Shown: positions 2,292-18,248 of the stretch, one piece after another
Layout of the letters: each line of letters opens with the position of its first letter
How positions within the stretch are numbered: the stretch's first letter is position 1
IMG/VR virus record: IMGVR_UViG_3300045988_132161
Location: 1 to 18,248 of that record
DNA: 18,248 nucleotides
Strand: one strand, 5' to 3'
Origin: a virus
The notes under the pieces: model-generated
Database searches by the model: none
What the model saw: only the letters and a program-made list of their open reading frames with translations
What the model was told of the DNA's origin: nothing
Position numbers and translations under genes: made by a program

Positions 2292-2315
2292 CCATCTTGA
2301 AGGGGAGTATGCCCT

Positions 2316-3278
2316 ATGTCCCGCAAACAGAAGCACGTCAAGGCACGTCAAGCCGCACAAGCCCGTGCCGCACGCAACATCAAACAGCTCGGCGCCTATT
2401 CGCATGCGAATCTCGCCAAAACCGCCGACAGGCAGCTCGTCAACATCGCCAAAACGCTCGGACAGGAGTGGGATAGGCAGAAGAGGCAGGCCATCGTGGA
2501 AGCGAAAGCCACCCCCTACCATGCCACCGTCGTGCCGAAACCCACGAAACAGGATTACCTGTTCGCCGCGCGTGCCGACATCACGGACGCACGGATCGCA
2601 GCGGAACCGGTGGCGAAGCGGCGCAAACTCCTACGCCAACAACGGCGGAAGATCAATGCGGCACGGCAGCGGATCAACGATTGGAACAAGGCGCAAGCCA
2701 TGCCACCTAAAAGCGTGTACGACCAGCGTATGGACGAACTTTCCGACACTACCGATGAGGGTTTCGGCCGCAATCAGATCATCCCCTCCAAGCTTACCGA
2801 TTTTCTCCAAATGAAGAACGTGCTTGGCGACGAAGCCTTTGTCAGGAGCCAGTTGGAAGGCGGTCATCGTAAGGAACTGTTGAACCAGATGCATGACGCC
2901 GCCGAGATTCTGGGCTTGCGTACCGAACGGGAAGCCGGGACGGGCGGAAAGCCTAAGGCGAAGGCGAAGAAGAGGCAGGACTTGTATGATGAAGGCCGAT
3001 GGCCGTCGTACATGCGTAAGTCGCGTTACGAAATGTTCGAAAAGATTCTGGGCTCGTCGCTCGGATCGAAGCGTCTGAAACGGTTCCGCAAGCTGACGGC
3101 CGCGCAGAAGCGTGCTTTCATCGAATTGACGGATGCGCCTCGCATCGTGTTCGACTGGTCCACGTATGATCCGGTCCGGCACGGTTTCGTTTCGGCTTTG
3201 CGTGAGGATAGCGAAGGCTACTCTCGCTCCCGCAGGAATTTCGACCGTTGGATGGCGGAGGTTGAGGCACTGGCGTAA
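2316..3278 (+). CDS. Putative terminal protein (positional call)
   Basis: 320 aa, SD AAGGGGAG upstream. It ends 28 nt before the DNAP start, matching the phi29 gene 3-2 order. The N-terminus is very basic (MSRKQKHVKARQAAQARAARNIK) and there is an internal KPKAKAKKR. I see no sequence-level match. Confidence 0.5.
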   Translation: MSRKQKHVKARQAAQARAARNIKQLGAYSHANLAKTADRQLVNIAKTLGQEWDRQKRQAIVEAKATPYHATVVPKPTKQDYLFAARADITDARIAAEPVAKRRKLLRQQRRKINAARQRINDWNKAQAMPPKSVYDQRMDELSDTTDEGFGRNQIIPSKLTDFLQMKNVLGDEAFVRSQLEGGHRKELLNQMHDAAEILGLRTEREAGTGGKPKAKAKKRQDLYDEGRWPSYMRKSRYEMFEKILGSSLGSKRLKRFRKLTAAQKRAFIELTDAPRIVFDWSTYDPVRHGFVSALREDSEGYSRSRRNFDRWMAEVEALA

Positions 3279-3305
3279 CGTGTCTCATCGAAGGGAAGTT
3301 ATATC

Positions 3306-4757
3306 ATGACGATGATCAAAAGTAGGGTCGGATTATGGTGTGCCGACGGTGTGATACGGTTTACGGACGGCACGGGATTGCATGATGTCGGCTCCCCCGC
3401 CGCCATGATGGCGGCTGTCATGACCGGAGGCAGGCTTACCGTCTACGTGACCGACCCTGATGTGCTCGATCCTTTCATTGCGCATGTCGTGCATGCGCTC
3501 CCCCATAATGAGCATCGCGCGAACCTGAGCTGGGATGGCATCGTTTCCAAGAAGGGCAGGTTTTTCAGCTTCTGTGTGACCGTCGACCGGGATGATTCGA
3601 TCCGCTTCTTCGACGTTTCGAACCTGCTGCGGGAAAACTGCCGTATCACCATGACGGACAGGCAGTTGTTGGCTGTTCTTGCCGAATATGAGAAGCGTGG
3701 CCTGTGCAGGATCACCGCGGGCGCGGCCAGCATGGAAGCGTTCGTCAGGGGGGATTGGGAATGGTATGATGGCAAATTCCCCCAGCTCGGTTCGGAGGAT
3801 AAAATGTCGTTGCATGGGGCTTATATCGGAGGATTCATGCTGGCCAAGGAAGGACGGTATGGCAAGGCCATTGACGTTGACTGCAATTCCATGTACCCGT
3901 CCATTTTGAAGGATGAATGGCTTCCGTGGGGGCTTCCGGAACCGTATGACGGCGAATATGAGCGGGATGACGACATGCCGTTGCATTGCGACGAAATGAC
4001 GTTCCGTGCGGAATTGAAACCGGACGGGTGTCCTTTCCTGTTGGACAACCGTAGCATGTACGGTTTGAATCGTCTCACTTCGACACGAGGCTATGTCACG
4101 CGTGTCCTGACCGACATCGACCAGAAGCTGCTCGAAGAGAATTATGACGTGACCGTGTACGAACGTGTGCGTGGGTGGAAGTTCCGTAGGAACAAAGGGT
4201 TTTTCCGCTCTTTCGTCGAAGAATGGGGCGCGTTGAAGCAGCGTGGGACGGGGGAGGGAAGGCAGATGGCCAAGCTCATCATGAACGCTCTCGTGGGCAA
4301 GATGGCAAGCCTGCCGAAAGGCGCCGTCATGCTCCCCTCTTCGAAGGATGGCGTCACCGTCGAATGGGATGTCGCCCATCGTGACGGGTCGAATCTGAAG
4401 ACCGATTATCTGCCGGTCCCCATATGGGTGAACGCTTATGCGCGTAGGAAGCTTATGACGGTCTGCCGTGCGAATGCGGATCGGCTCCTGTATGCCAATA
4501 CGGACGGCTGCATACTGTCCGGCTGGGATCCGGTGGCATCATGCGAGATTCATCCGACCGAATTGGGCAAATGGAAGATCGCCGCCAAGTATGATAGGCT
4601 CACCATTCTGGGAGTGAATCGATATCAGGGGTGGCGTTGCGATGGTGGAGTGGATGTCTGCATGGCGGGAAGCGTGTTCGACGAGCCCATCCCCTATGAG
4701 CGGTTCCGGCATGGCGTACAGGTGCGCGACGCCTGCGGTACGATGGTCATGCTATGA
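3306..4757 (+). CDS. Protein-primed family-B DNA polymerase (phi29 gp2-like, short and divergent)
   Basis: 483 aa. Motif A is IDVDCNSMYPS (phi29 FDVNSLYP), motif B is KLIMNALVGKMAS (phi29 KLMLNSLYGKFAS) and motif C is LLYANTDGCIL (phi29 IYCDTDSIHL). RITAGAASMEAF matches phi29 RMTAGSDSLKGF. A TPR2-like insertion, SLPKGAVMLPSSKDGV...PIWVNAYAR, lies between motifs B and C. Confidence 0.9.
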   Translation: MTMIKSRVGLWCADGVIRFTDGTGLHDVGSPAAMMAAVMTGGRLTVYVTDPDVLDPFIAHVVHALPHNEHRANLSWDGIVSKKGRFFSFCVTVDRDDSIRFFDVSNLLRENCRITMTDRQLLAVLAEYEKRGLCRITAGAASMEAFVRGDWEWYDGKFPQLGSEDKMSLHGAYIGGFMLAKEGRYGKAIDVDCNSMYPSILKDEWLPWGLPEPYDGEYERDDDMPLHCDEMTFRAELKPDGCPFLLDNRSMYGLNRLTSTRGYVTRVLTDIDQKLLEENYDVTVYERVRGWKFRRNKGFFRSFVEEWGALKQRGTGEGRQMAKLIMNALVGKMASLPKGAVMLPSSKDGVTVEWDVAHRDGSNLKTDYLPVPIWVNAYARRKLMTVCRANADRLLYANTDGCILSGWDPVASCEIHPTELGKWKIAAKYDRLTILGVNRYQGWRCDGGVDVCMAGSVFDEPIPYERFRHGVQVRDACGTMVML

Positions 4758-4900
4758 TGGGAATCGTTCTTCGAGCATTGATTTTCGGCTGGGAGAGACA
4801 TGGTTCGGACTGCCACGGCTGAGAATGCCGCCGATCATGGTTTGCCGTCGTGGTGACGGCGCCCTACGATTTTCGCCTCATGCTCTTATAGGACGTTTCG

Positions 4901-4930
4901 GGCCCTCCGTGATTGGAGGGCCTTTTGCTT
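4901..4930 (+). terminator. Rho-independent terminator closing the replication operon
   Basis: GGCCCTCC, loop gtgatt, GGAGGGCC: an 8-bp GC-rich stem at 4901..4922, followed by TTTTGCTT. Confidence 0.75.
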
Positions 4931-4939
4931 GCCGTGGCA

Positions 4940-4948
4940 TGATATGAT
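4940..4948 (+). promoter_or_regulatory. Promoter P3 (late): extended -10 TGaTATGAT
   Basis: TG at 4940..4941 and TATGAT at 4943..4948, just downstream of the terminator and 36 nt upstream of the scaffold ATG. There is no convincing -35. Confidence 0.4.
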
Positions 4949-4983
4949 TGGAGAGGAAACATTGCCTATCGTAAGGAGATTGC

Positions 4984-5268
4984 ATGGCAGAACCGACCAC
5001 TGGCGACGAGGATGCTCCCGTCCAGCCGCCGACCGTGGAGGAGAGGGAGACCGAAACCGTCGACGATGAGGTCAAGCCGAACGGGGATTCGGGGCCGGAG
5101 TCGAAGGACGGCGGGCCGGACGTGTCCGCACGACTCGATGCCATCGAGAAGGAGTTGGCCGCATTGAAGGCCATGATGGACACGCTCGGATACACGGACC
5201 CCACTCCGGCCGATGACGGCGATGATGGCGTCGAAGCGCAGCATTCCATCGAAGACCTGTTCGATTAA
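4984..5268 (+). CDS. Scaffolding protein (phi29 gp7-like by size, charge and position)
   Basis: 94 aa and very acidic (D/E-rich), with a helical segment ARLDAIEKELAALKAMMDTL. SD AAGGAG lies upstream and the gene sits immediately before the major capsid gene. Confidence 0.6.
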   Translation: MAEPTTGDEDAPVQPPTVEERETETVDDEVKPNGDSGPESKDGGPDVSARLDAIEKELAALKAMMDTLGYTDPTPADDGDDGVEAQHSIEDLFD

Positions 5269-5290
5269 CCATAGTTAGGAGATATTCACC

Positions 5291-7033
5291 ATGTCTAATA
5301 TTCGACCGTTGGCCGGCAAGGGTGACGTTGAGATTTTCAATGCCGTGCGTGCCGAAACCAGCCCCCAGTTTCAGATGCGCATTCCGTCGGCCACGCAAGG
5401 CAACCTTCGCAGGGCCGTGGATACCATGCGCGGCTTCCCGTACCTGCGCGACGAGTTCACGGGAGTGCTGATCCAGCGTCTCATCGGACTGTACGTCCAG
5501 CATGCGGACTGGGATGATCCGCTCAAGCTTGTCGGCTCCCCACGGACCTTGAAGCGCTATGGCAGCACGTATGAGCAGGCCGCCGTCGGCTTGGTCAAGG
5601 CACGCACCCGCAATTTCAATCAGGAATATCTGGGCGATGACGTCTATGGCCGTTATTCGCTGCCGACCGCAAGCGTCTTCCATCCTCTCACGTTCGACCA
5701 TTACTATCCCGTCACGATCCCGGAGGATGCGCTGCTGACCGCATTCGACGGCGAGTCCGGCATGTCGGAGTACATCGCCGAGATTATGAACGCCCCCATC
5801 CTGTCGGATAGGAACGACATGTATCTCATGAAGACGCAGTGCTTCGCGGAATACGCCCGCAAGGGCGGCTTCTATCGCGTGCACACGCCGGACGTGGGCA
5901 AGGCCGATTCGACCGAAGCCGATGCGAAGGGCCTGTTGCGTCTCATCCAGCAGAAGGCCAACGAGCTGAAGTCCCTTCCGATGAGTGCGATGGGCAGGTA
6001 TAATGCCATGAGCTGGGTGACGCCGTGGCGTGATTCCGAAGCGATCCTCTTCGCCACCCCGCAGGTGATCGCCGCATTGAACGTGGAGGCGTTGGCCGCG
6101 GCGTTCAACATCGATCGGGCCAACGTGCCGTATCGTATCATCCCGATTCCGGAGGACATGTTCGGCATCGGCGGCGCGGCGGGCAAGGTGCAGGCCGTGC
6201 TCACCACCGAAGACTTCTTCTTCTGTTGGGATGAAATGCTCGAAACCACGAATTCGCCGGTCAATCCGATTGACGGCACCCGCAACATCTTCTTCAAGCA
6301 TCGTGGTTCCGTCACTCCGAACCCGTTCGCGAACGCGATCCTGTTCTGGACGGGCGAAGGCTCTTCCGAATCCGTCGTCCTGCCGGACACGCTCACCGTT
6401 TCCAAGCCGAAGTTCGCGTTGCGTGTCAGGAAGTACGGCCAGCCTGCCGTCACCCCGCAGGACGTGTCGCGTGGCGACCTGGTGCAGGTCGAGTCCGTCA
6501 TTTCCAGCGCCAACAAGGATACGGCATCCTTCCAGCCGGTCGGCGTCGAATACGCGTTGGAGGGCGCGACCTCCCAGTTCACTTCGATCGACAATGACGG
6601 CATCCTCAGGTGCGGTTTGGACGAAACCGCCGAAAGCCTCAAGGTCACCGCGCAGGCGACCTATGTCGATCCGGCGACTCCGGAGATTGATCAGGCCGTT
6701 TCCGCCGCGCTCGACGTGCCCGTCGTCGGCACTTGGGTCGGCGGCATCAAGGTCGGCGCACTGTCCGGACTGACCGTTTCCGGCCCCGATGATGTGAAGG
6801 TTTCCGGATCCGTCAAGCTCACCGCCTTGGCTCTCATGGCGGACGGGTCGAAGCGGGATGTGAGCAATCTTGCCGACTGGAATGTCGACGCGAACGCTAC
6901 GGTCGACAAGACGGGCAAGCTGACGGGCGCTGCCGTCGGCGACGCGAAGGTGACCGTCAGGTTCGCCGGAGCGGTCGGCGAAAAGACCGTGAAGGTTTCC
7001 GCCGGCGAAAAGACCGTGAAGGTTTCCGCCTGA
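5291..7033 (+). CDS. Major capsid protein (phi29 gp8-like) with Ig-like (Big_2-type) C-terminal domains
   Basis: 580 aa, SD TAGGAG upstream. [22 protein letters not shown] matches phi29 [38 protein letters not shown] matches phi29 LDVDVLAKAFNMNRTD. The C-terminus [53 protein letters not shown] is a typical Big_2 pattern. Confidence 0.9.
   Translation: [580 protein letters not shown]
6977..7030 (+). repeat. Perfect 27-bp tandem duplication at the 3' end of the capsid gene
   Basis: GGCGAAAAGACCGTGAAGGTTTCCGCC occurs at 6977..7003 and again at 7004..7030. It is in frame and gives [18 protein letters not shown] followed by the stop. Confidence 0.95.
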
Positions 7034-7054
7034 GAAGGTGTCGGAGAGTAGAAT

Positions 7055-7092
7055 GGGCATGGGGGTGACCCTCATGCCCGTTCTTGTTGTTT
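7055..7092 (+). terminator. Rho-independent terminator or attenuator after the capsid gene
   Basis: GGGCATGGGGG, loop tga, CCCTCATGCCC: an 11-bp stem with one G-U pair, followed by GTTCTTGTTGTTT. Confidence 0.65.
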
Positions 7093-7102
7093 AGGAGGTT
7101 TT

Positions 7103-9334
7103 ATGACGGCCAATGATCTGCCCATCAACTTCAGTTACGCGAAATGGACGCCGAACACCCGCTTCAAATTGTGCAATGTCCCTTGGGATATGGGGTATCG
7201 GGATATCGTCACATGGGATAGGCAGCGGCAGGAAGCGTATTTCGACGGGTTGGACGGCATCGAATTCACCGGCTGCACCATGGCGAAATACGGGCTGCCG
7301 GTACGGTTGCCGGTGCCGTTCGCGCAGGCGTCGCGATACAATTATCTCATCGCATCGAACGAGTATGGTTTCGATACTCCTCGCAGCTGGTATTATTTCG
7401 TGCAATCCTGCGATTACGTGAACGCCGGCACCACGCAGTTGAACATCCAATTGGACGTGTGGCAGTCCTTTCAGCATGACGTGACGTTCGGCACCGCCTA
7501 TGTGGAAAGGGGGCATGTCGGCGTCGCCAACGAACGTCAGATGGACGATTACGGTCGTGGAACGCTCGACCTGCCGGAAGGATTGGATGCCGGCAAGACG
7601 CTGATCAACGCGACCACGGCGTACATGCCGCTCGCCACGGTGGAAGACGGGCGTGTGGCCTGCGGTGTGATCATCGTATCCACCACGGACCTTACCGTCG
7701 ATCCGGGGGATCAGACCAATCCGAAGACCACCACCGCAAGCGGGTCCATATTCGAAAACCAGTATAATGGCACGCAATTGATCTATCTTACGTCCGTGGA
7801 CGACTTGCAGACCGTGTTCGCCCTGGGTGCGAACTATCCGTGGGTCACCCAAGGCATTTGCGGCATTTACGCGGTACCGCGGCTGCCTGAAGGCCTGTTG
7901 CGCAATCAGGGGGAGTATGGGAAACTGTTCGGCAAGGAAGTGAAGGGATTGAAAGGCAGGATCGTCCACTTGTATCAGAATACCGTCCACGGCCGGGACC
8001 GGTATTCGGATGTCATGGTCGTGAAGGATTTTCGCGACAACTTCCATATCCCGCAGCGTTACCGGCATTTGAAGAAGCTGCTCACCGCCCCCTACTCCGT
8101 CGTCCAATGCTCCTGCCTGAACGGCACCAGCATCGAATATTCGCCGGAACAGATCCCATCCAAGGATCTGACGATCCGTGAAGCGTGGCAGTATGCGCCG
8201 CCGCAGCCGCGTCTGAATTTCTGGATACCGAATTACGCCGCCCAATATGCGGACCAGTGGTCGCCCCTGCCGGATGACATGGGATTGCCGTTCGATAAGG
8301 GCGACATGTTGGATGCGGCTTTCGGCATCACGAATTTCCCGACGTTCATGGCCGTCAACAATGGCAGCGCCCTCGCATTGGCCAATTCCGCCTATACGCG
8401 ACAGTATGCGCAGAAGTCGGCCGACTGGTCGTATCAGAAAACCATGATGGGCGTCAACAACGCTTACGCGCAATCGCAGATCGGCACGCAGTATGCGGGC
8501 GAAGCGAACCGGCTCGGCGCGTCCAACCGCAATTCCATGAATGCGATCAGCAATCAGGCCGCGCAGATGGCAACGGATCTGACGTTGAAGAACCTCGGGT
8601 TTTCGAACCAGATGGCGCAGCTCAATACGATCGGATCCGGCGCTCTCGGAGCCGTCGGCTCCCTTGCGACGGGCAATGTCGGCGGTGCGGCCGGAGCCGT
8701 GGCGGGAGCTGCGATCGGCGCTTGGACGAACCAGCAGACCTACAATAACGACGTAAGTTCGGCCAACCAGCAGTTGGCGAACACCCAAGCCACCAACAAC
8801 GCTTCGACGTCGCAGGCCAATGCCTATTCGCTCGCGCAGACCAACCTGTCCAACCAGCAGACCATGCAGTTCGCCGACATGAACCGCCGGCTGGCGCAGG
8901 CCACCGCGCAAGGCGACTATGCGAACACGATCGCCGGCATCAACGCGCAAGTGCAGCAGACGCAGACCACGCCGCCGACCACGTCCGGCGCGTTGGGCGG
9001 CGACGCGTTCAACCTGGCCAACGGCATTGTCGGCGTATGCGTGAAATTCCGCCGCCTGTCCGACGCGGCCCTTAATACGATCGGCGAATTCTGGCTGAGA
9101 TACGGATACTACGTCCAACGGTTCATGCGCATGCCGGCCGGTCTCATGGCCATGAGCAATTTCACGTATTGGAAGGTTCACGAACTGTATTTGAGCAGTT
9201 CGACATGTCCTGAAGAGTTCCGGCTGACCATCAAAGGCATTTTCGAAAGCGGCGTGACGGTGTGGACGGATCCTGACAGGATCGGCGTCACCGACTATGC
9301 GGACAATGAGCCGCTGGCGGGCATCTCATACTGA
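7103..9334 (+). CDS. Tail knob / distal tail tube protein (phi29 gp9-like)
   Basis: 743 aa, SD AGGAGG upstream. SRYNYLIASNEYGFDTPRSWYYFVQSCDYVNAGTTQLNIQLDVWQSFQHDVTFGTAYVERGHV matches phi29 [60 protein letters not shown]. The C-terminus FWLRYGYYVQR...IKGIFESGVTVWTD matches phi29 FFHKYGYKINR...IRTIFDNGITLWHTD. Confidence 0.9.
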   Translation: MTANDLPINFSYAKWTPNTRFKLCNVPWDMGYRDIVTWDRQRQEAYFDGLDGIEFTGCTMAKYGLPVRLPVPFAQASRYNYLIASNEYGFDTPRSWYYFVQSCDYVNAGTTQLNIQLDVWQSFQHDVTFGTAYVERGHVGVANERQMDDYGRGTLDLPEGLDAGKTLINATTAYMPLATVEDGRVACGVIIVSTTDLTVDPGDQTNPKTTTASGSIFENQYNGTQLIYLTSVDDLQTVFALGANYPWVTQGICGIYAVPRLPEGLLRNQGEYGKLFGKEVKGLKGRIVHLYQNTVHGRDRYSDVMVVKDFRDNFHIPQRYRHLKKLLTAPYSVVQCSCLNGTSIEYSPEQIPSKDLTIREAWQYAPPQPRLNFWIPNYAAQYADQWSPLPDDMGLPFDKGDMLDAAFGITNFPTFMAVNNGSALALANSAYTRQYAQKSADWSYQKTMMGVNNAYAQSQIGTQYAGEANRLGASNRNSMNAISNQAAQMATDLTLKNLGFSNQMAQLNTIGSGALGAVGSLATGNVGGAAGAVAGAAIGAWTNQQTYNNDVSSANQQLANTQATNNASTSQANAYSLAQTNLSNQQTMQFADMNRRLAQATAQGDYANTIAGINAQVQQTQTTPPTTSGALGGDAFNLANGIVGVCVKFRRLSDAALNTIGEFWLRYGYYVQRFMRMPAGLMAMSNFTYWKVHELYLSSSTCPEEFRLTIKGIFESGVTVWTDPDRIGVTDYADNEPLAGISY

Positions 9335-9336
9335 CC

Positions 9337-9389
9337 TGTATAATGGGAGGAGCAATGAACACTCCTCCCATGATGTTAGGACGGTAATC
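9337..9389 (+). promoter_or_regulatory. Leader of the portal gene: consensus -10 TATAAT, SD-sequestering hairpin and a 10-codon uORF
   Basis: TATAAT at 9339..9344. GGGAGGAG (9345..9352) pairs with CTCCTCCC (9362..9369), leaving the uORF ATG (9355) in the loop. The uORF at 9355..9387 encodes MNTPPMMLGR, and its TAA ends 2 nt before the portal GTG. Confidence 0.45.
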
Positions 9390-10331
9390 GTGAGCAGACG
9401 CAACAATGCGCGTAAGGCCGCACATTGGGACAACCAGTCGGTGTTGGGATCCATGTGGGGCAATCTGAACCTGCCTGAAATGCGGCAGAGCCTGCGCATC
9501 AACCAGTATATGAAGCTTATCGAAATGCTGGCGGTGTCACGGTTCAAATGGGTCAACCTGCCCCCATACGTCGATGAACGGTATCTTGAATTGACGTTGT
9601 TCGAAAACGGCTTGGCCCTGTTCTTCCCGGACAAGCGTAAGGGGGTGCACCGTTTCATGGTCACGTCCGGCAATATCGGCGGCGTGAACAATTATGACAA
9701 CCCCACCAGCTTCCAGCCCGTCGCGACCGGATATTCGCATCCTCAGATCGGAAGCAAGGAGTGCGTGCCCATCTGGGACAACCAATTGCGATGCACCATG
9801 ATCGACGTCATGTGGAATTACGCCACACGGTTGGCCATCGCGGATCGTGCCCTCGACGTGAATCTCGACAACATCAGCGTGCCGTTGATCATCGCCACGT
9901 CCGAAACCAACAAGCTCACCGCACAGAATCTGATGAAGGCGCGTGAGGATGGCGACCCATACGTGTACGCCTATGATTCGGCGGATATCACCGGCATGTT
10001 CCAGACATTCCCCAACATGACCCCCTTTTTGGCGGATAAGGTCATCACCGTCAAGACGCAGATATGGAACGAGCTGGTCAACTATCTGGGGATCGACAAT
10101 TCGACGACGGAGAAAAAGGAGCGTCTGCTCGAATCGGAGGTGACCGCCGGAAACAGTCGTACGAACGTCTTCCGCCTGAGCTATCTGAAGGCCCGCCAGC
10201 AGGCGTGCGATACGATCAACCGCCTGTGGCCGCAAATGGCGGATTCGGGCAAGCCGATCGGCGTCGAATGGAACGACGTCACGACCGGCGGCCTGTTGGA
10301 CGTGGATGGAAGCAAGGAGGATGGACGATGA
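9390..10331 (+). CDS. Portal / upper collar connector protein (phi29 gp10-like)
   Basis: [23 protein letters not shown] matches phi29 [50 protein letters not shown]...[16 protein letters not shown] matches phi29 [27 protein letters not shown]...FLKSREEACEKINELY. I chose the in-frame GTG at 9390 as the start. This gives 313 aa (phi29 has 309) and a basic N-terminus SRRNNARK like phi29 MARKRSN. The upstream ATG at 9297 would overlap the knob gene by 38 nt. Confidence 0.85.
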   Translation: [313 protein letters not shown]

Positions 10332-11140
10332 CGCAGGATCTGAGCATGTACGCCGTCAAGGACAATATGGCGGATTATACGCTGACCTTGGGCAATCTGA
10401 TCGCACGCGGTTTCGACACGGATGACAAGCTGCATCTGTCCGCGCGATATTATCCGATCTTCGACGAATCATACCGGGCGAGGCTCAACGAAAAAATAGT
10501 CGCCCACTACGCCTTGCGTGAAATAGGCAGCGAAACGCCCCAGATGTTCGTGTTCTATCTGGGACGGACCATGCGCGAGCAGATGGACTATTTCAACCAG
10601 TTGTATGTCAGCGCCCGACATGAGTTCGACCCTTTCATCACTTCCGACATCAGGCAGGACATGGATTCGACCAACGTCAACGAGTCGAGCGGCCGTTCGA
10701 GCGGCACCCAGTCGAACGAATCCACCGCCCACAGCACGTCGGACACCAAGGCGGACAATTCCAGCATGACGTTCAATTCCGAGTTTCCGCAGACCCGCAT
10801 CGACGATTTTCGCAAGTTCGCCACCAGCGCGTCGCAGACCGATTCGACCGGCGACACGCATACCAGCACGCAGCAGGACAGCACGGCCACCGCAACCAGT
10901 CGAAGCAACACCGATTTTGCGCATTCGTCCGACAAGGGCAAGAGCGTCTCGCATACGCTCGGCACCAGTGGCTCGCAATCCCAGCTTCTGCAGGATTGGC
11001 GTAACACCATGCTCAACATCGACCTCATGGTCGTCAACTCGCTCGAAGACCTGTTTCTGGGCGTGTGGGGCAGCGGGGACGTCATGACCGCCGGTCGGAC
11101 GCCTTGCAACACTTCCCTCGCCTATGCTCTAGGCCATTAG
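10328..11140 (+). CDS. Lower collar protein (phi29 gp11-like)
   Basis: 270 aa. ATG at 10328 overlaps the portal stop (ATGA), with SD AAGGAGG 7 nt upstream. The N-terminal YYPIFDESYRARLNEKIVAHYALREIGSETPQMF is the pattern I associate with lower collar proteins. A Ser/Thr-rich central region follows, and the gene sits after the portal. Confidence 0.65.
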   Translation: MTQDLSMYAVKDNMADYTLTLGNLIARGFDTDDKLHLSARYYPIFDESYRARLNEKIVAHYALREIGSETPQMFVFYLGRTMREQMDYFNQLYVSARHEFDPFITSDIRQDMDSTNVNESSGRSSGTQSNESTAHSTSDTKADNSSMTFNSEFPQTRIDDFRKFATSASQTDSTGDTHTSTQQDSTATATSRSNTDFAHSSDKGKSVSHTLGTSGSQSQLLQDWRNTMLNIDLMVVNSLEDLFLGVWGSGDVMTAGRTPCNTSLAYALGH

Positions 11141-11174
11141 GCTATACTTGGATGTAGGACAGATTGGAGGACTT

Positions 11175-11696
11175 ATGGATGGGATCAATCGACGCCCAAC
11201 CCCTGTGGACATCGATCCGCGGCAACGGTATTTCACTACCGTGCAGCCATTCAGCTATCGTGATACGCTGACGGCGCTCGGATACATTCAGGAGGTCGCC
11301 TCGCATGTCGACGAACTCAGGGAGCAGCTTGGCAATCTCGCCAAGGATGAGCATGCGGACATCGAAGCGATCAATGGGATTCTCGCGCGGATCGAAACGT
11401 GGCAGGATGCCGTCGACGGCACGTTGGATGATCTGACGGCGAAACTGGACCAATATCAGGCGTCGGCGTTGACGTACGATCCGACCACGGGCCGGTACGG
11501 GGATTCGAAGACCACGGATCGTAACATGTATCGGGAGCTCGCCGTGTTCGGGGCACGCGTGGACCAGATGGCGTCCATGACGGCCGCCGAAGCCGCGAAC
11601 CATGATTGCATCACGTGGGCGGTCTTGGGCAATCGGGAGATTTTCGGCGATGACGAGCCGCGGGTGACGCCGCGGGAAAGGACGGGACGGCGGTGA
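11175..11696 (+). CDS. Hypothetical structural protein (173 aa, coiled-coil-like)
   Basis: In-frame ATG at 11175 follows GGAGGA (11166..11171). The track start at 11148 is a TTG. The gene lies between the collar and fibre genes. I recognise no family. Confidence 0.55.
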   Translation: MDGINRRPTPVDIDPRQRYFTTVQPFSYRDTLTALGYIQEVASHVDELREQLGNLAKDEHADIEAINGILARIETWQDAVDGTLDDLTAKLDQYQASALTYDPTTGRYGDSKTTDRNMYRELAVFGARVDQMASMTAAEAANHDCITWAVLGNREIFGDDEPRVTPRERTGRR

Positions 11697-11860
11697 ACGA
11701 CGACAGGTACGGCAGGACGCGGCATCTCGGCCTGCCATTGTATATGGACGATACTCCCATGGACTTGCGTGACGGATATAATGCGGCCATGAGAATGTTG
11801 GATCTGAAAATCAACCAATTGGAAACGCTCATCCGCGAAACCGAAGGAGTGAATCAATGA
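11693..11860 (+). CDS. Small protein (55 aa) paralogous to the N-terminus of the downstream fibre
   Basis: Hand-translated as VNDDRYGRTRHLGLPLYMDDTPMDLRDGYNAAMRMLDLKINQLETLIRETEGVNQ. The GTG start overlaps the upstream stop (GTGA) and its stop overlaps the fibre ATG (ATGA). It shares 16 of 37 positions with fibre residues 10..46 (NYGLNLYGDKDPADLRDGYNDSMHTIDETLKNHLDKI). Confidence 0.45.
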   Translation: MNDDRYGRTRHLGLPLYMDDTPMDLRDGYNAAMRMLDLKINQLETLIRETEGVNQ

Positions 11861-13662
11861 GCACCATATACGACAAGACCGACAATTACGGGTTGAACCT
11901 GTACGGTGACAAGGATCCCGCCGACCTGAGGGACGGCTATAACGATTCCATGCATACCATTGACGAGACGCTCAAAAACCATCTCGACAAGATCGACGGC
12001 GTGTCCCACACCGTTACGGACGCCGTCCAGAAGCAGGATGCGAAGATCGCGCTGAAGGCCGACAGGACCTACGTCGACGAACAGGACCGGACTCTTCAAG
12101 CAGCCATCGACGAACAGGATCGGAACCTTCAGACGGCCATCGACGGGAAGGCCGACAGGACCTACGTGGATGGCATGCTGGAAGGCAAGGCGGACTCCGC
12201 TCTCGTATATTCGAAGCATGATGTGGATTCGACTTTCGCGCTTAAGGCCGACACGTACACGAAGGAGGAAGTCGACAGGATGCAGGCCGGGCAGGATGAG
12301 GCCATCAACGCATTGAACCGGGGCGTCGACCAGGATCATAGCGTTCTCGTATCATACTTCCTGAGCCAATCCGAACGGTTGCATTACGCCGTATCCTCGG
12401 ATGGCGTCAACTTCGGACACCCGTACATCCGGGATAACGATGAGGGGGAGACGGTCCGCGACCCGTCATGCGTGTACGTGGACGGGCAAGTGTATTTCTG
12501 TTGGACACGTCCCACCGAAGCCGGCGGCGGCGCGTTCGGCAAGACGGACACGATAGGCATAGCCCAATTGAATCCTACGACCGGGGACATCGTACGCCGG
12601 ATCATCACGCCGGGCGTGCCTGGAACCTCGAACCTGTGGGCGCCCGACTTCTATCTGGAAGATTCGACGCTTCATATCATCTTCTCCGTCAAGACCGCCA
12701 CGCAGGACTTCCAGCCGTATGAGATTCATTCGACCGGCAACTATGCCGATCCATCATCATGGTCGACTCCGGTCGCCTTGGGCATCGCACCGTACGGCGG
12801 CATCGACCACCATATCATCAAGGATGACGCCGGAACGTATCATGACCTTTCGGCGGATGGGTCCGTCATTTCCGAACGGCACAGCAGGACCCTTATCGGA
12901 GGATGGAGCGGCAGGACGACCGTCGACAAGAACTGGCGTTATCTCGAAGCGCCCGCCTCCTATCGTCTCGCGAACGGCCGGTGGAGGGTGTTCTTCGACG
13001 GGGGCGGACTTCAGGGAGACTATAATCCCGGTTCGAACCTTCGGGAGAACGATGGCCTCATGTTCTACTGCGACTTCAGCAACGACCTTTCCACGCACGG
13101 GCCTCTCCACCCGGTCCCCACGGCCATGAGGCACTGCGGGCTCACGCTCATCCCCAACGATTACCTGGCCACGCAGGCACGTCTCGAAGTGGGGTCCGGG
13201 ATCGGCGGAGCCTACCTGTATAATTCCGTCGACATTCCGGTGGGGCTTGATTCCGCCGGGAAGAACGTTCGTGCGCTGTTCAACAGGTTCGAAGGGTTCG
13301 GAGGACTCCAGAACACCGGATTCGGAGGAAGCCATAACACCACCGAAGGGTTCATCGTAGGAAACTCGGGACTGTATGTGCTTGCCGCTTCCGTCTCATA
13401 CAAGTGCACGGCGCCTAAGACGTGGATCAACGCGCAGATCACCTGCTATCCGCAACGTGACTTCAAGAACGCGAGGAATCTGGGCATTGGCGCACAAGGA
13501 TTCTCGGCTCCCGACGACGACACGATCACTACCGTGGTATTGCCGGCGACGCTGGTGTACCTCCATGCCAACGATCAGATTCAGATCAAGATGTTCGGCA
13601 GGGACGGCGCTGTGACGCAGAGGGCCAACAACTCCTATTTCACCGCGTTCAAGGTGGCTTGA
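11857..13662 (+). CDS. Tail fibre / appendage (receptor-binding protein) with a GH43-like beta-propeller and a C1q/TNF-like C-terminal domain
   Basis: 601 aa, SD GAAGGAG upstream. N-terminal anchor motif YGLNLYGDKDPADLRDGYN. Shaft repeats KADRTYVDEQDRTLQAAIDEQDRNLQTAIDGKADRTYVD. Propeller-type motifs are VRDPSCVYVDGQVYF, LWAPDFYLEDSTLHIIFS, GIDHHIIKDDAGTYH and YLEAPASYRLANGRWRVFF. The C-terminal ~155 aa (GFIVGNSGLYVLAASVSY...LVYLHANDQIQIKMF...SYFTAFKV) has a jelly-roll, C1q-like pattern. Confidence 0.7.
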   Translation: MSTIYDKTDNYGLNLYGDKDPADLRDGYNDSMHTIDETLKNHLDKIDGVSHTVTDAVQKQDAKIALKADRTYVDEQDRTLQAAIDEQDRNLQTAIDGKADRTYVDGMLEGKADSALVYSKHDVDSTFALKADTYTKEEVDRMQAGQDEAINALNRGVDQDHSVLVSYFLSQSERLHYAVSSDGVNFGHPYIRDNDEGETVRDPSCVYVDGQVYFCWTRPTEAGGGAFGKTDTIGIAQLNPTTGDIVRRIITPGVPGTSNLWAPDFYLEDSTLHIIFSVKTATQDFQPYEIHSTGNYADPSSWSTPVALGIAPYGGIDHHIIKDDAGTYHDLSADGSVISERHSRTLIGGWSGRTTVDKNWRYLEAPASYRLANGRWRVFFDGGGLQGDYNPGSNLRENDGLMFYCDFSNDLSTHGPLHPVPTAMRHCGLTLIPNDYLATQARLEVGSGIGGAYLYNSVDIPVGLDSAGKNVRALFNRFEGFGGLQNTGFGGSHNTTEGFIVGNSGLYVLAASVSYKCTAPKTWINAQITCYPQRDFKNARNLGIGAQGFSAPDDDTITTVVLPATLVYLHANDQIQIKMFGRDGAVTQRANNSYFTAFKVA

Positions 13663-13725
13663 GTCCGACCGGCGGCCTATGGGCGTCCGGTCGGGCGAAT
13701 ACGGCATGTGACGGCAATGGTGGAC

Positions 13726-13750
13726 GGAACCCCTTAAGACGAGGGGTTCC
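13726..13750 (+). terminator. Hairpin in the fibre-lysin intergenic region (weak terminator candidate)
   Basis: GGAACCCCT, loop ttaagacg, AGGGGTTCC: a 9-bp stem followed by ATCCTATT, a poor U tract. A second hairpin, CCGACCGG (13665..13672) with CCGGTCGG (13687..13694), lies upstream. Confidence 0.3.
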
Positions 13751-13772
13751 ATCCTATTCGGAGAGTGGTACG

Positions 13773-15029
13773 TTGAGCAATCAAAGCATGTTTGCGATGT
13801 ATGCGATCGGCAAGGTCGAATCAGGCAATTCGTGGACTTCGGTGAACTACAATGATCCGATCACCTTGGGGATGATGCAATGGTATGGGACCCGCGCCTA
13901 CGGCCTGCTCGACAAGGGCCGTAGGGAGGATCCTGTCGGATGGACGGGATTCGAACGGGATGCGCCCACCTTGGCCGGACAGGTCGAAGCCAATGCCATC
14001 GACTGGACCGGCCGATACCTGACCCGTGCGGAAGGCAACGCGTTCATCACATGGGCCAGCCGCAGCGAATTCCACAAGGTCGAACAGGACCTGTGGGAAT
14101 CCGACTATGCGGCGTACTCCGCCACGTGCGACGATTATGGCTTCCCGGCGGGCAATGTCAGGGAGCGTATCTTCTTCATGAGCATGTACCATCAGTCGCC
14201 GCAGCGTGCGCTGGTGGTATTGGGCAATGTCAGCGCCACCGGATCGCTTGAACTGTTCCACACCACCGCGCTCAACGATGCCATCCTCGGCCGCTATCCA
14301 AGCCGATACGATACCGTCTACCGGCTGTTGCGCGATTGGGATGGGACGGGCGCCCCGCCTGACTTCGGACAGTCCGGCAGCATCGACGTCACGCCGGGCG
14401 GCAATGGTCCCGCCATCGAATCCAAGCCGAAGAACACGCGTTGGATTCACGTGCAGGGGGATGGCATGTATTTGCATGACGGCGGCAAGGTGAGCATATT
14501 CCATCACACCACCGCCCAGAATTGGGTCGAAAGCGTGCAACAAGGCAACGAAATTTCAGGCGGGCAGACCGGGGGAGGCAGCAGTAGCGGCAGCGCCACG
14601 TCGGACCAGAGGAAAGTGTACGACCTGTACCTGTCATGGCAGGGACGGTTCGCCTACTCTCAGGCCGGGGGACGGTTGGATCCGCTCCATACCGGCTATG
14701 GTGACTGTTCGAGTACGATCTGGCGGGCGTATCAGGATGCGCTCGGCATCGACGTGGGCACGTGGACCGGAGCGATGAAAGGCAAAGGCAGACGCGTCTG
14801 TTCCAGTGATGGTACGGGCGTGGAGGAAGCGTTGAAGAACGCGCAGACCGGCGACCTGCTATTGCTGTGTTGGGGGTATGATTACGTCAACTATGATCAT
14901 GTCGAAATGGCCGCCGGAGACGGGTCTCATTGTCTTGGCCATGGCGGGCCGGGCAACGGGCCGACGTTGAAGGATATGGGGGCTACCATGCGGGCCGCCG
15001 CGACATGGGAGATTCGACGGTATGTCTGA
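13773..15029 (+). CDS. Tail-associated peptidoglycan hydrolase (gp13 analogue): N-terminal lytic transglycosylase-like domain plus C-terminal NlpC/P60 endopeptidase
   Basis: TTG at 13773 lies 8 nt after GGAGAG; ATG at 13788 is an alternative start. The N-terminus has GKVESGNSW...ITLGMMQW (SLT-type ES and GLMQ motifs). A Gly/Ser linker follows. The C-terminus has GYGDCSSTIWRAY (catalytic Cys), GDLLLL and YDHVEM (His), typical of NlpC/P60. Confidence 0.75.
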   Translation: MSNQSMFAMYAIGKVESGNSWTSVNYNDPITLGMMQWYGTRAYGLLDKGRREDPVGWTGFERDAPTLAGQVEANAIDWTGRYLTRAEGNAFITWASRSEFHKVEQDLWESDYAAYSATCDDYGFPAGNVRERIFFMSMYHQSPQRALVVLGNVSATGSLELFHTTALNDAILGRYPSRYDTVYRLLRDWDGTGAPPDFGQSGSIDVTPGGNGPAIESKPKNTRWIHVQGDGMYLHDGGKVSIFHHTTAQNWVESVQQGNEISGGQTGGGSSSGSATSDQRKVYDLYLSWQGRFAYSQAGGRLDPLHTGYGDCSSTIWRAYQDALGIDVGTWTGAMKGKGRRVCSSDGTGVEEALKNAQTGDLLLLCWGYDYVNYDHVEMAAGDGSHCLGHGGPGNGPTLKDMGATMRAAATWEIRRYV

Positions 15030-15040
15030 TCGTAGGAGTG

Positions 15041-15049
15041 TGTTATACT
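15041..15049 (+). promoter_or_regulatory. Promoter P4: extended -10 TGtTATACT
   Basis: TG at 15041..15042 and TATACT at 15044..15049, 12 nt after the lysin stop. The format matches the ITR, P2 and P3 elements. There is no clear -35. Confidence 0.4.
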
Positions 15050-15053
15050 ATAA

Positions 15054-15140
15054 GTGTCGGCATACAAGCATCTGCGAACAACTTCCCTTGGCCGACACGG
15101 GGTGTGACGGTGGTCATGACGTCACACCCCTTTCCCTTAT
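15054..15140 (+). ncRNA. Candidate ~80-nt structured RNA or leader (two hairpins ending in a terminator) upstream of the packaging ATPase
   Basis: Hairpin A pairs GTGTCGGC (15054..15061) with GCCGACAC (15091..15098), extended by CAAG (15065..15068) with CTTG (15087..15090). Hairpin B pairs GGGGTGTGACG (15099..15109) with CGTCACACCCC (15120..15130) and is followed by TTTCCCTTAT. The TSS predicted from P4 is about 15055..15058. Confidence 0.3.
15099..15140 (+). terminator. Rho-independent terminator between the lysin and ATPase genes
   Basis: An 11-bp perfect GC-rich stem with a 10-nt loop, followed by TTTCCCTTAT. Confidence 0.6.
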
Positions 15141-15157
15141 ATGGAGGTGACGTCGAA

Positions 15158-16225
15158 ATGGCATTGCGGACATTGGCTGAAAACGACTATTACGACCTCC
15201 ACAACCTCCTCACCCGTAACGCGCCATGGAACTTCATCATCGGAGCGCGAGGCCTCGGCAAAACCTTCGCCGCGAAACGATACGGCATCAAGGAGTACCT
15301 CAAACACGGGCACGAATTCATCTACCTGCGCCGCACCGACGTGGAACAGAAACGCAAGGAAACCTTCTTCAAAGACATTCAAAGCTTCTTCCCCGACTAC
15401 ACGTTCCGCATCAACGGCGACAAAGGCCAATTGCACAACGACTCGTGGGAAGACAAGGACTGGCGCACATGCTGCCATTTCATCGCCCTCTCCCAAGCCG
15501 GCGGCCTCAAATCAGTCGCCTACCCCAAAGTCCATCTCATCATCTTCGACGAAATATTCCCCGACAACCTACGATTCCTCAGCAATGAAGTCAACTCGTT
15601 CTCCGAATTCTTCAACACCGTGGACAGGTGGCAGGATAGGACGAAAGTATTGTTCCTATCCAACGCCGTACAGCAAGCCAACCCCTACTTCGCGAAATAC
15701 CATCTGGACATCGGCACGCAGCAAGCCAACCATCAGCAATACAGGCTCTACTGCAGCGGCTTCATCTGCCTCGAACTGGCGGATTACGGCGGATTCTCAG
15801 CCAAAGTAGCCAAATCCAGATTCGGCAGGTTCCTGGAACGATACGATGGCGACTATGCGGATTACGCCATTCGAAACAAGTTCCGGGACGAATCCGACAA
15901 GCTCATAGCGGCAATCCCCCCGGACGGTGAACTGTCATACGTTCTGGACACCGCCGACTACGGTCGCTTCGGCATTTGGATGACGATATCCGAAAAGGAC
16001 GGGCACGTGTCACGATACGTGTCACGACGGATACCCAAAGACAACACCCGCCCCACCTACACGCTCAACCCCAACCACGTCGACGAAAAAACATGGTACG
16101 TCAAAAAATCCGACGACGTGGTACGACGACTCACCACCGGATACCGGCTCGGCAAAATCAGATTCGAAAACACCCAAGTCAAAGCGGACTTCGCCCTCAT
16201 CATCGGCAACCTGCTAGGAGCATAG
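15158..16225 (+). CDS. DNA packaging (encapsidation) ATPase, phi29 gp16-like
   Basis: 355 aa. ATG at 15158 lies 10 nt after GGAGG (15143..15147). WNFIIGARGLGKTFAAKRYGIKEYLKHGHEFIYLRR matches phi29 LNFVIGARGIGKSYAMKVYPINRFIKYGEQFIYVRR (Walker A). HLIIFDEIF matches STIVFDEFI (Walker B). FLSNAVQQANPYF matches CLSNAVSVVNPYF. RFGRFL and GKIRFEN match RFGRLI and GYLRFDN. Confidence 0.95.
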   Translation: MALRTLAENDYYDLHNLLTRNAPWNFIIGARGLGKTFAAKRYGIKEYLKHGHEFIYLRRTDVEQKRKETFFKDIQSFFPDYTFRINGDKGQLHNDSWEDKDWRTCCHFIALSQAGGLKSVAYPKVHLIIFDEIFPDNLRFLSNEVNSFSEFFNTVDRWQDRTKVLFLSNAVQQANPYFAKYHLDIGTQQANHQQYRLYCSGFICLELADYGGFSAKVAKSRFGRFLERYDGDYADYAIRNKFRDESDKLIAAIPPDGELSYVLDTADYGRFGIWMTISEKDGHVSRYVSRRIPKDNTRPTYTLNPNHVDEKTWYVKKSDDVVRRLTTGYRLGKIRFENTQVKADFALIIGNLLGA

Positions 16226-16240
16226 AAAGGAAACCCGACA

Positions 16241-16606
16241 ATGACGCAAACGGACATATGGAGCGCCATCGCAATACTGTTCTTCATCACCACGGACTAC
16301 ATCACCGGAGTGATCAAAGCCAGCATGCAAGGCAACCTCAGCTCCAAAAAAATGCGGGAAGGCTTAGGCCACAAGCTCGCCTACCTCGCACTATCAGTCA
16401 CCGCATGGTTCATAGACATGCTGAACACGCACCTCCCCCTCGGCTTCCCCCTCGACATATCCACCTGCGTCATCAGCGGCATCTGCCTCATCGAACTCAC
16501 CTCCATCCTCGAAAACCTCACAGCCATCAACCCGGAACTCAACGACGCCCCATTCATGAACATCTTCGCACAACACGACACCCAGCCAAAACACAAGGAA
16601 AGCTGA
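16241..16606 (+). CDS. Holin (Phage_holin_4_1 / LL-H, TcdE-type)
   Basis: 121 aa. It has the pattern DYITGVIKA...LSSKKMREGLGHKLAYLALSV.....ID...LIELTSILENL and predicted transmembrane segments. It lies immediately upstream of the endolysin. Confidence 0.85.
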   Translation: MTQTDIWSAIAILFFITTDYITGVIKASMQGNLSSKKMREGLGHKLAYLALSVTAWFIDMLNTHLPLGFPLDISTCVISGICLIELTSILENLTAINPELNDAPFMNIFAQHDTQPKHKES

Positions 16607-16609
16607 CCA

Positions 16610-17479
16610 ATGGACGACATCACATGGATAGGCTCACCAAACCACTACAACGGGCGAAACGGCTACACCATCACCCACATCACACTCCACATCATGGTAG
16701 GCCACCTCACCGGAACCGACAACGTCTTCAACCAGCCCACGACACAGGCAAGCGCACACTACGGCATCGGAGCGGACGGCACCATACACCAATACGTCAA
16801 CGAAACGGACGGCAGCTACAGCGACGCCAACTACGCATCCAACAATTCAACCATCAGCATCGAACACGAAGGAGGAAAAGCCGGCATACCATGCACCCAA
16901 GCATGCATGGACGCCAGCGCCCGACTCTGCGCCGACATAGCACGACGACACGGTTGGACACACCTATGGCATGACGGGCTCAACGGCAACATATGGCTCC
17001 ATCGAGAAATACCCGGAACAGACCACTACGGATGCCCCGACAACACCATCAACAGCCTCAACGTACCCTACATCATCAACAAAGCAAACCAACTACTGGC
17101 AACAGGAGACACTATGACAGCAGAAGACGTATGGAACTTCAACCAAAACGGCGTGAAAATGCGCGACCGCATACAAGGCACCGACACGGCCGCAAACAGC
17201 GCCAAAACCGAACTCTTCCGACTATCCACATGGGACAACGACACCCACGCATCCCCACTAGGAAACCTCGTCATCGAACAGCCAATCCAACAAGGAGCCA
17301 AACTCGGCGACCGAATAGCCGGCATCGACGACAAAACCAGCCAACTCATCACCCAAATAGCCGCACTCACCACAGCAGTCAAAACACTCGCCGAACGCAT
17401 AGGAGCCAACCCCGACACCACCACACCAACCACACACAACCAGACCAAGCCAAACCCGACAACCACCACAACACAGTGA
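16610..17479 (+). CDS. Endolysin: N-acetylmuramoyl-L-alanine amidase (Amidase_2 / PGRP fold) with an uncharacterised C-terminal region
   Basis: 289 aa, SD AAGGAAAG upstream. It carries ITLHIMVGH, SAHYGIGADGTIHQYVNE, NNSTISIEHEG and LHREIPGTDHYGCPDN (T7-lysozyme-type Zn ligands His, His, Cys). The C-terminal ~130 aa is coiled-coil-like and ends in a Thr/Pro-rich tail. Confidence 0.85.
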   Translation: MDDITWIGSPNHYNGRNGYTITHITLHIMVGHLTGTDNVFNQPTTQASAHYGIGADGTIHQYVNETDGSYSDANYASNNSTISIEHEGGKAGIPCTQACMDASARLCADIARRHGWTHLWHDGLNGNIWLHREIPGTDHYGCPDNTINSLNVPYIINKANQLLATGDTMTAEDVWNFNQNGVKMRDRIQGTDTAANSAKTELFRLSTWDNDTHASPLGNLVIEQPIQQGAKLGDRIAGIDDKTSQLITQIAALTTAVKTLAERIGANPDTTTPTTHNQTKPNPTTTTTQ

Positions 17480-17536: not shown

Positions 17537-17543
17537 CCCATAC

Positions 17544-17783: not shown

Positions 17784-18248
17784 AACAACACTCCCATCAA
17801 TGACTGAACACAACAACAACAACCAAACCCACAACAAGACCAGTACAAAGCAACAACACGTCCCCAACATCCCGCGAAACATCACTGCACATCAAAAACA
17901 GCTCGCAGCCAAGCAAGACGGCAAGAACACCAACAATGAAAACCATTATCAACACACCAACCTCACCACACAACCGGAACGACAAGCCCCACAGGAACCC
18001 CATGGCCAACAACGAAATAAAAAACAGTAATCATTTCACAACCTTTCTTTGAAGTTGATAACTACACTATACCACACACAAAAAAACAACACAACCGGAA
18101 AACGCAAAAAAAGACAGAAAAAATAAAAAAACCAGCAGCAAACTACAACAGAACCACCAACAACCACACACACAAAAAAACAAAAAAAAGAAAACATACC
18201 ATAAAAAAAAATACTATGGGAAAAATTTCCCACAGATCCCACCACTCA
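17735..18248. repeat. Right inverted terminal repeat (514 bp)
   Basis: Mirror copy of 1..514; see the left ITR entry. Confidence 0.95.
18066..18094 (-). promoter_or_regulatory. Mirror copy of ITR promoter a, firing leftward into the right end
   Basis: Reverse complement of 155..183. ACTATA at 18066..18071 is TATAGT on the - strand. Confidence 0.45.

Follow-up and report, generated by a model that had tools for sequence, protein, structure and literature searches.

The 128-nt spacer in front of the encapsidation ATPase gene of IMG/VR virus record IMGVR_UViG_3300045988_132161 (positions 1 to 18,248, the whole stretch analysed and referred to here as the window) is, on balance, best read as encoding a short, two-hairpin, base-pairing RNA that is antisense to the ribosome-binding site of the phage's own DNA polymerase (DNAP) gene and is not a packaging RNA (pRNA). 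The window (18,248 bp) is a complete linear phi29-like Bifidobacterium podophage genome with inverted terminal repeats, in which the spacer extends from the end of the upstream gene at 15029 to the ATPase start codon. At the level of sequence, the conserved anatomy of the element, the covariation of its stems, the complementarity of its loops to the DNAP start and the co-variation of that complementarity with its target are established; repression as the outcome, and its timing, are what we infer.

Promoter and hairpins of the spacer

The spacer holds an extended -10 promoter, two hairpins and a T-rich tail, followed by the Shine-Dalgarno (SD) sequence of the ATPase gene:

15041..15049 (+): extended -10 promoter TGTTATACT, with no recognisable -35 box
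15054..15098 (+): hairpin A, stem GTGTCGGC at 15054..15061 with GCCGACAC at 15091..15098
15080..15089 (+): loop A, AACTTCCCTT, complementary to the DNAP SD region
15080..15090 (+): loop A seed AACTTCCCTTG, complementary to the DNAP SD region
15099..15130 (+): hairpin B, an 11-bp G+C-rich terminator-like stem, GGGGTGTGACG at 15099..15109 with CGTCACACCCC at 15120..15130
15113..15119 (+): loop B seed GTCATGA, the complement of TCATGAC, which spans the DNAP start codon
15131..15142 (+): T-rich tail TTTCCCTTATAT, presumed 3' end of the short RNA
15143..15160 (+): ATPase SD GGAGGTGA (GGAGG at 15143..15147) and ATG at 15158

The promoter pattern TGNTATAMT is matched twice in the window, against 0.21 matches expected, and the spacing from the -10 box predicts that the transcript begins near 15055, at the base of hairpin A. 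The fold of the single window sequence is modestly better than that of shuffled sequences (z = -2.1). Hairpin B closes on a loop of 10 nt, GTGGTCATGA, and because of this loop length it was not listed by the promoter/terminator scan; the tail that follows it in the window is UUUCCCUU, and many relatives carry UUUU(U) directly after the extended stem, with the T count in the 10 nt after the hairpin ranging from 1 to 7 among relatives.

An earlier sequence-only reading of this stretch had located the -10 box, both hairpins, the T-rich tail and the SD, and all of these coordinates were right on re-checking, as were the positions it gave for GTGACG and the GACGTC-containing repeats GACGTCAC and GTGACGTC. 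Its statement that the last two are mutually complementary is true of the window, at 8 nt, and does not extend at full length to the relatives, in which only 3-7 nt of the hairpin B 3' arm are complementary to the ATPase SD region or downstream leader, a match that is hard to tell from the G-rich and C-rich composition of the two segments. Its proposal of a discrete small RNA stands as far as the self-contained promoter, the two conserved hairpins and the terminator-like end are concerned; the product would be about 80-95 nt long, with both ends predicted.

Loop B contains an ATG that, in the window, shares the reading frame of the ATPase gene, and no stop lies between them (15116..15160). This ATG was considered as a conserved start codon and was rejected, the frame in relatives stopping after 6-9 codons, near the SD.

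Comparison with related phages

The relatives comprised the isolates BD811P1-3 and BP1 together with 80 unique metagenomic loci, and two more viral-contig scans with the ATPases of divergent relatives returned only the same 80 loci. Identity to the window is 83% for the Bifidobacterium dentium phages BD811P1-3 and 77% for BP1, a phage of B. pseudocatenulatum. The sequences were divided into type 1a (the window and the BD811P phages), type 1b (BP1-like), type 2 (e.g., L023), type 3 (L074 and L075) and type 4 (L079). The arrangement of promoter, hairpins A and B and T-run upstream of the ATPase gene is present in the four isolates and the 80 metagenomic relatives (about 85 genomes); the -10 box reads TGnTATA(A/C)T in nearly all of the 80 unique relatives, with variable neighbouring bases.

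The stems change on both sides. For instance, hairpin A occurs with the stems GTCGGC/GCCGAC, TGGCAGT/GCTGCCA, GTCGGT/ACCGAC and GCGTGATGGG/CCCATCACGC; both sides are changed in 5 of 6 pairs and 96.4% of cells are paired. Similarly, hairpin B, of median energy -26.5 kcal/mol in relatives, occurs as GGGGTGTGACG, GGGGAGCGTAACG, GGGGAGTATGACG, GGAGGGCGTGCG, GCCGCCATACAT and GGGTGATG, each with its exact complement, and both sides are changed in 10 of its 13 pairs. MAFFT applied to all leader types misaligned types 2 and 3, and a covariance model built from type 1b was therefore used instead for the alignment of 39 sequences. Over both stems, pairing is kept in 97.0% of cells, with changes on both sides in 15 of 19 pairs; the both-sided changes amount to 136 cells, against 31.5 in shuffles, and no more than 5 pairs are so changed when the partner is slid. 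The sequence-only reading had named stem covariation across relatives as one of its checks, and these 15 pairs bear it out. The raw lists of stem variants agree with the pairing obtained from the covariance model, which matches the element once per genome, on the coding strand, and gives no match in the ATPase regions retrieved for four phages that are more distant.

Between the hairpins, the length of the linker ranges from 1 to about 20 nt. The loop sequences are kept while the stems vary freely between types, and complements of the loops were therefore sought.

Complementarity of the loops to the DNA polymerase start

The complements lie at the start of the DNAP gene:

3290..3310 (+): proposed target, the DNAP translation-initiation region GAAGGGAAGTTATATCATGAC, with ATG at 3306
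3306..4757: family-B protein-primed DNA polymerase (Pfam DNA_pol_B_2)

When the complement of AACTTCCCTTG is sought with at most one mismatch, the sole match in the window is at 3290..3300, directly upstream of the DNAP ATG (CGAAGGGAAGTTATATCATGACGA). As RNA, loop A (AACUUCCCUU) is complementary to the DNAP SD region AAGGGAAGUU (3291..3300), which lies 11.8 kb away on the same strand, and loop B, GUCAUGA, is complementary to UCAUGAC spanning the DNAP start codon (3304..3310). With all gene starts of the window ranked, the DNAP start is the best for loop A (-15.0 kcal/mol) as well as for loop B (-10.3 kcal/mol), and it is the best loop A site genome-wide in BD811P1, BD811P3 and BP1. The DNAP leader is predicted to be unstructured. 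Loop A was also considered as an anti-SD acting in cis on the ATPase gene and was rejected, as the ATPase start scores -10.9 kcal/mol against -15.0 kcal/mol for the DNAP start; in type 3, the CCUUA of loop A also matches a changed ATPase SD (UAAGG).

For a survey of the relatives, ATPase-side and DNAP-side loci were joined by contig into 55 genomes, and RNAduplex energies were computed on short segments. Loop A against its own DNAP leader has a median energy of -18.5 kcal/mol, compared with -8.8 kcal/mol for shuffled leaders, and its duplex overlaps the DNAP SD region in 55 of 55 genomes. Loop B against its own leader has a median of -9.5 versus -4.7 kcal/mol, with the best duplex spanning the AUG in 41 of the 55. 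Perfect complements of loop A reach 12-14 nt in several genomes, including 14 nt in type 1b, and the interior of type 2 hairpin A gives a bulged pairing that runs from the DNAP SD through the start codon.

The conserved leader also touches the annotation of two relatives. Together with N-terminal alignment, it places the DNAP start of BD811P2 (L002) at 3273 (GTG), annotated at 3387, and that of BP1 (L003) 36 nt upstream of the annotated start (record position 14615), which suggests that both deposited start codons are too far downstream.

A second translation-initiation region is a possible further target:

1780..1797 (+): single-stranded DNA-binding protein (SSB) translation-initiation region CAAGGGAAGGATATGATC, with a complement of loop A of 9 nt in the window
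1792..2235: phi29-type SSB (Pfam assignment)

In type 3, the SSB leader (L171, 55..80) contains AAGGTTG (7 nt), matching its own loop A, and AUCAUGG, matching its own loop B. Since the SSB leader is complementary to loop A, more than one replication gene may be targeted. The SD of the replication genes (1780..3310), namely those of SSB, the putative terminal protein at 2316 and DNAP, is the variant AAGGG(A/G)AG, whereas AGGAG(G) is found in most of the late genes (4970..16610). This difference may reflect selective targeting by the C-rich loop.

The same C-rich loop is what recommends a different target. The element could be a trans-acting small RNA aimed mainly at host mRNAs, in the manner of the Gram-positive small RNAs with C-rich loops, since its pyrimidine-rich CUUCCC is a generic anti-SD seed; the complementarity, however, runs past the SD into bases specific to the DNAP gene and co-varies with them, and this explanation is considered improbable.

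Joint change of loops and proposed target

The loops and the DNAP leader differ together between the sequence types. In types 1 and 2, the leader AAGGGAAGTTAT stands opposite loop A ATAACTTCCCTT, with a 12-nt perfect complement in type 1; in type 3 (L074/L075, with DNAP loci L163/L100), the leader TTAAGGTTGCA (TAAGGTTGC) stands opposite the loop GCAACCTTA, with a 9-nt perfect complement; and in type 4 (L079, with DNAP locus L169), the leader CAAGGGAAGATG stands opposite the loop CATCTTCCCTTG, with a 12-nt perfect complement. The complement of each type's loop A occurs once in the available genome sequence of that type, always at the DNAP start.

MAFFT applied to the joined leader and loop put a gap into the type 3 rows, and pairs were therefore counted in a fixed register. 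In a register of 16 pairs, 80.4% of cells pair over 21 distinct leader/loop combinations, and sliding the register lowers the pairing to 32-58%; when whole loops are permuted among genomes, the observed pairing is reached in 1 of 20000 permutations. Both-sided changes occur at four positions of the register (e.g., U-A 17, G-C 2, A-U 1), and opposite a fixed U, A-U alternates with G.U (U-A 14 against U.G 7 at one position). In a cross-type matrix, the score of the type 3 loop is -13.3 with its own leader versus -5.6 to -8.3 with the others, and that of the type 4 loop is -17.4 with its own leader versus -5.0 to -14.8 with the others. Smaller differences follow the same course: the partners of loop B at -2/-1 go from UC/GA in type 1a to CC/GG in type 2, the GUG start codon of BD811P2 is accommodated in the loop B pairing through G.U, and L010 and L021 carry G in place of U in the leader together with one additional U in the loop.

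Two complementary segments on one strand also form an inverted repeat in DNA, and two sites of one DNA-binding protein would co-vary as well; the DNAP leader and the loop A region could thus be inverted copies of a protein-bound double-stranded DNA motif that changes with protein specificity. Against this stand the position of the complementary segments in the loops of compensatorily changed stems, which is sensible only for a single strand, and the partner covering exactly the SD and AUG of a gene. Moreover, the target sites of loops A and B lie side by side, but 25-60 nt separate the two loops in the spacer element, and several variants, including the GUG start, keep their pairing through G.U. 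Such a DNA-level element is accordingly judged very improbable.

A number of observations weigh against the antisense reading or limit its reach. The co-variation rests on approximately three independent sequence types, inverted copies of a DNA motif that vary together could conceivably be sites of protein binding, and the covariance-model alignment was fitted to the proposed structure, with figures that are somewhat inflated. The match of loop A is partly generic, setting a pyrimidine-rich loop against a purine-rich SD, and the leaders of the SSB and putative terminal-protein genes score nearly as well as that of DNAP. In the window itself the pairing is shorter, at 10 + 7 bp, and an energy scan of the window with the full 29-nt loop A does not rank the DNAP site at the top, because the variable G+C-rich part of the loop gives stronger chance duplexes. 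Among the relatives, type 2 loops pair with bulges and the leader does not match their extra bases, and loop B pairs weakly (-3.8 to -7.8) in type 1b and no longer pairs in L075. Finally, we infer the transcript ends, and with them a discrete short RNA, from consensus spacing.

Alternatively, the element may act purely in cis, as a leader or attenuator in which the terminator of hairpin B limits or times the transcription of the ATPase, holin and endolysin genes, hairpin A serves as a 5' stabiliser or antiterminator site, and the match to the DNAP gene has no function. The layout lends itself to this explanation: in most relatives a strong G+C-rich stem and TTTT(T) stand directly before the ATPase SD, a similar order of hairpin, T-run and SD follows the capsid gene (7050..7084), the predicted transcript start falls at the base of hairpin A, and in relatives 3-7 nt of the hairpin B 3' arm are complementary to the ATPase SD region. 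Furthermore, the stretch from hairpin B to the ATPase ATG has no promoter, which makes read-through obligatory, and the expression of the packaging and lysis genes therefore needs some of it. Nevertheless, an attenuator leaves unexplained why the loops rather than the stems are conserved and why loop A changes together with the DNAP leader; the linker varies from 1 to about 20 nt, and no conserved mutually exclusive fold was found. No conserved antiterminator pairing was found in the relatives, and the minimum-energy folds keep hairpin B in every one of them. As a full account of the spacer, attenuation in cis is rather unlikely; as an extra function of hairpin B, compatible with the antisense reading, it is plausible.

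Proposed mode of action

For the antisense RNA, the spacer carries the features by which a trans-acting small RNA is recognised in sequence: a promoter and a terminator-like end, an accessible conserved seed, and seed-target co-variation. Host RNA polymerase would start at about 15055 from the extended -10 (15041..15049) and transcribe hairpins A and B; some transcripts would end in the U-rich tail at about 15133..15142, giving an RNA of about 80-90 nt, and the remaining ones would read through to become the 5' leader of the ATPase-holin-endolysin mRNA. The terminated RNA and the mRNA leader would each display both loops in single-stranded form, and the active form may be the ~85-nt terminated RNA, the ATPase mRNA leader, or both. 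With loop A on the DNAP SD and loop B on the start codon, binding of the 30S subunit would be blocked and DNAP synthesis lowered; the SSB gene would perhaps be affected too by loop pairing. A conceivable rationale is that in protein-primed replication DNAP is recycled and terminal protein is consumed, such that repression of the operon's last gene would adjust the ratio of the two. As the RNA gene is copied with the genome, the RNA could act as a dosage-dependent brake on replication proteins.

If this holds true, it would amount to a possible copy-number-type feedback loop in a phage, and the natural compensatory variants of seed and target would provide a testable model for the post-transcriptional control of a protein-primed DNA polymerase. 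To our knowledge, few RNA regulators are known in strictly lytic phages, and literature searches found no RNA regulator reported for phi29-like or Bifidobacterium phages, nor any transcriptome or reporter study of the phages considered here.

Packaging RNA

The sequence-only reading had proposed that the spacer element is a pRNA analogue, bridging prohead and ATPase. The element is a conserved structured RNA that adjoins a gp16-type ATPase gene, and the palindrome UCAUGA in loop B could in principle self-associate. The phi29 pRNA, however, is built on a domain of some 120 nt whose two ends pair into a helix and which contains a three-way junction as well as the C/E and D helices (Hill 2016, PMC5066667), whereas the spacer element has about 85 nt in two separate hairpins, with neither an end-to-end helix nor a three-way junction. 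The Rfam pRNA model has no match at the gathering threshold or at E<=10, either in the whole window or in 15035..15165 alone, and a search with all Rfam families, including C4 and the actinobacterial 6C, returned only chance terminator-like matches even at E<=10. In pRNA, complementary sequences in the CE bulge and the D loop permit pairing between molecules; loops A and B of the element are not mutually complementary (median duplex energy -5.4 kcal/mol, versus -3.8 kcal/mol with shuffled loop B). In addition, the element is missing from more distant phages of the same ATPase family: BadAargau2, BadAztec1, Actinomyces phage Av-1 and Arthrobacter phage Mendel encode related ATPases and have no spacer, their ATPase genes directly adjoining or overlapping the gene upstream. 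A packaging role for the spacer element is thus hardly credible.

The sequence-only reading had also recognised no pRNA elsewhere in the genome, and by its own standard the discovery of one would refute its proposal; a far better, pRNA-like candidate does lie elsewhere. A gap of 227 nt separates the DNAP gene from the next gene and holds a discrete RNA gene of about 165 nt (4750..4935, +), in which the promoter is followed by about 140 nt of very conserved sequence and then by a strong terminator (4900..4923 + TTTT). The promoters in this gap are as follows:

4750..4758 (+): extended -10 TGCTATGAT, which is TGCTATAAT in relatives
4940..4948 (+): second conserved extended -10 TGATATGAT, which is ATGATATAATT in relatives

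The second of them stands directly after the terminator of the RNA, and the leader from it to the late genes is short and unstructured; it is probably the late promoter.

The structural model of the RNA at 4750..4935 pairs the 5' and 3' ends and includes a minor side hairpin, a junction helix (GGG/CCC), a long arm interrupted by a bulge of 7 nt (ACUGCCA), an apical hairpin (loop UGAGAAU), a second hairpin of 7 bp (loop GUGGY) and the separate terminator hairpin. In 36 representative relatives, 94.4% of cells are paired and 26 of 47 pairs are changed on both sides, compared with 13.1 pairs in shuffles and no more than 10 when slid. Moreover, the GCCA of the bulge is complementary to the UGGY of the loop in 97.9% of cells, one bulge/loop pair occurring as G-C 25 times, G.U 7 times and A-U 4 times, with zero mismatches. 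This layout resembles that of the phi29 pRNA, with its contact between the CE bulge and the D loop and its separate 3' hairpin. A search of the RNA against Rfam gave no match beyond chance, and there is no detectable sequence homology to pRNA; it is accordingly termed pRNA-like and nothing more.

According to a 2024 review, pRNA is unique to phi29 and related Bacillus phages (PMC11476376). The RNA at 4750..4935 may be the first pRNA-type RNA outside the Bacillus phages, and it bears on the long-standing question of whether packaging RNAs are restricted to phi29 and its Bacillus relatives (PMC11476376). Taken together with the spacer element, it permits a wider and distinctly tentative picture, in which a lytic protein-primed phage would control its replication by an antisense RNA whose dose rises with copy number and which clamps the SD and AUG of DNAP, perhaps also of SSB; read-through would couple the shut-down of replication to packaging and lysis, and the RNA at 4750..4935 would be the first non-Bacillus pRNA.

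Relation to known RNAs

The spacer element is not a member of any Rfam family, and its closest parallels are functional ones. The c4 RNA of phages P1 and P7 is a short trans-acting phage RNA with two segments complementary to sites that include a ribosome-binding region, and its seed and target differ together between related phages. The spacer element resembles c4 (Rfam family C4) in its two-site pairing on a phage mRNA and in seed-target differences that arise together; unlike c4, it has no Rfam C4 match, its target would be DNAP instead of an antirepressor, its phage is a lytic phi29-like podovirus of an actinobacterial host, and it has its own promoter in place of processing from an operon transcript.

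In the OxyS-fhlA and CopA-CopT (plasmid R1) pairs, hairpin loops contact the ribosome-binding region of the target, as the loops of the spacer element are predicted to do. The dose of CopA follows the replicon copy number and limits the synthesis of the replication protein. CopA is antisense-encoded and fully complementary to its target, whereas the spacer RNA is encoded 11.8 kb away and would act through seeds of 10-14 nt.

With the phi29 pRNA (RF00044), the element shares the standing of a conserved structured non-coding RNA in a phage with a gp16-type ATPase and protein-primed replication, but it lacks the pRNA architecture, and the pRNA-like candidate of this genome is the RNA at 4750..4935. 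The lambda pR'-tR' unit (6S RNA) consists of a promoter and then a terminator, with the lysis and packaging genes expressed only by read-through, and the promoter and terminator-like hairpin of the spacer are likewise placed before packaging and lysis genes; unlike in lambda, neither a Q-like antiterminator nor a binding element for one was identified for the spacer element. We know of no base-pairing target for the lambda 6S RNA, whereas the loops of the spacer element match the DNAP start.

Genome context

Downstream of the spacer lie the packaging and lysis genes:

15158..16225: encapsidation ATPase, phi29-type (Pfam Podovirus_Gp16, E = 1e-43)
16241..16606: holin (Pfam assignment)
16610..17479: amidase endolysin (Pfam assignment)

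A tRNA/tmRNA scan of the window detected none. The inverted terminal repeats share identical hairpin and T-run motifs (14..35 with 18214..18235, and 332..348 with 17901..17917), and because matching motifs are present in both, the repeats reach at least about 350 bp into the genome. A distant relative, L170 (IMGVR_UViG_3300015172_000004), has a tail protein 49% identical to that of L079; in comparison with the window, its ATPase is 27% and its capsid protein 29% identical, and its gene order differs, with the ATPase upstream of the capsid gene.

In the interval that separates the window's capsid gene from its downstream neighbour (7050..7084, +), a 16-bp hairpin is followed by TGTTGTTT and then by an SD. 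This layout of hairpin, T-run and SD matches that of hairpin B and the ATPase SD, and the hairpin is probably a partial terminator that sets the ratio of capsid to tail protein.

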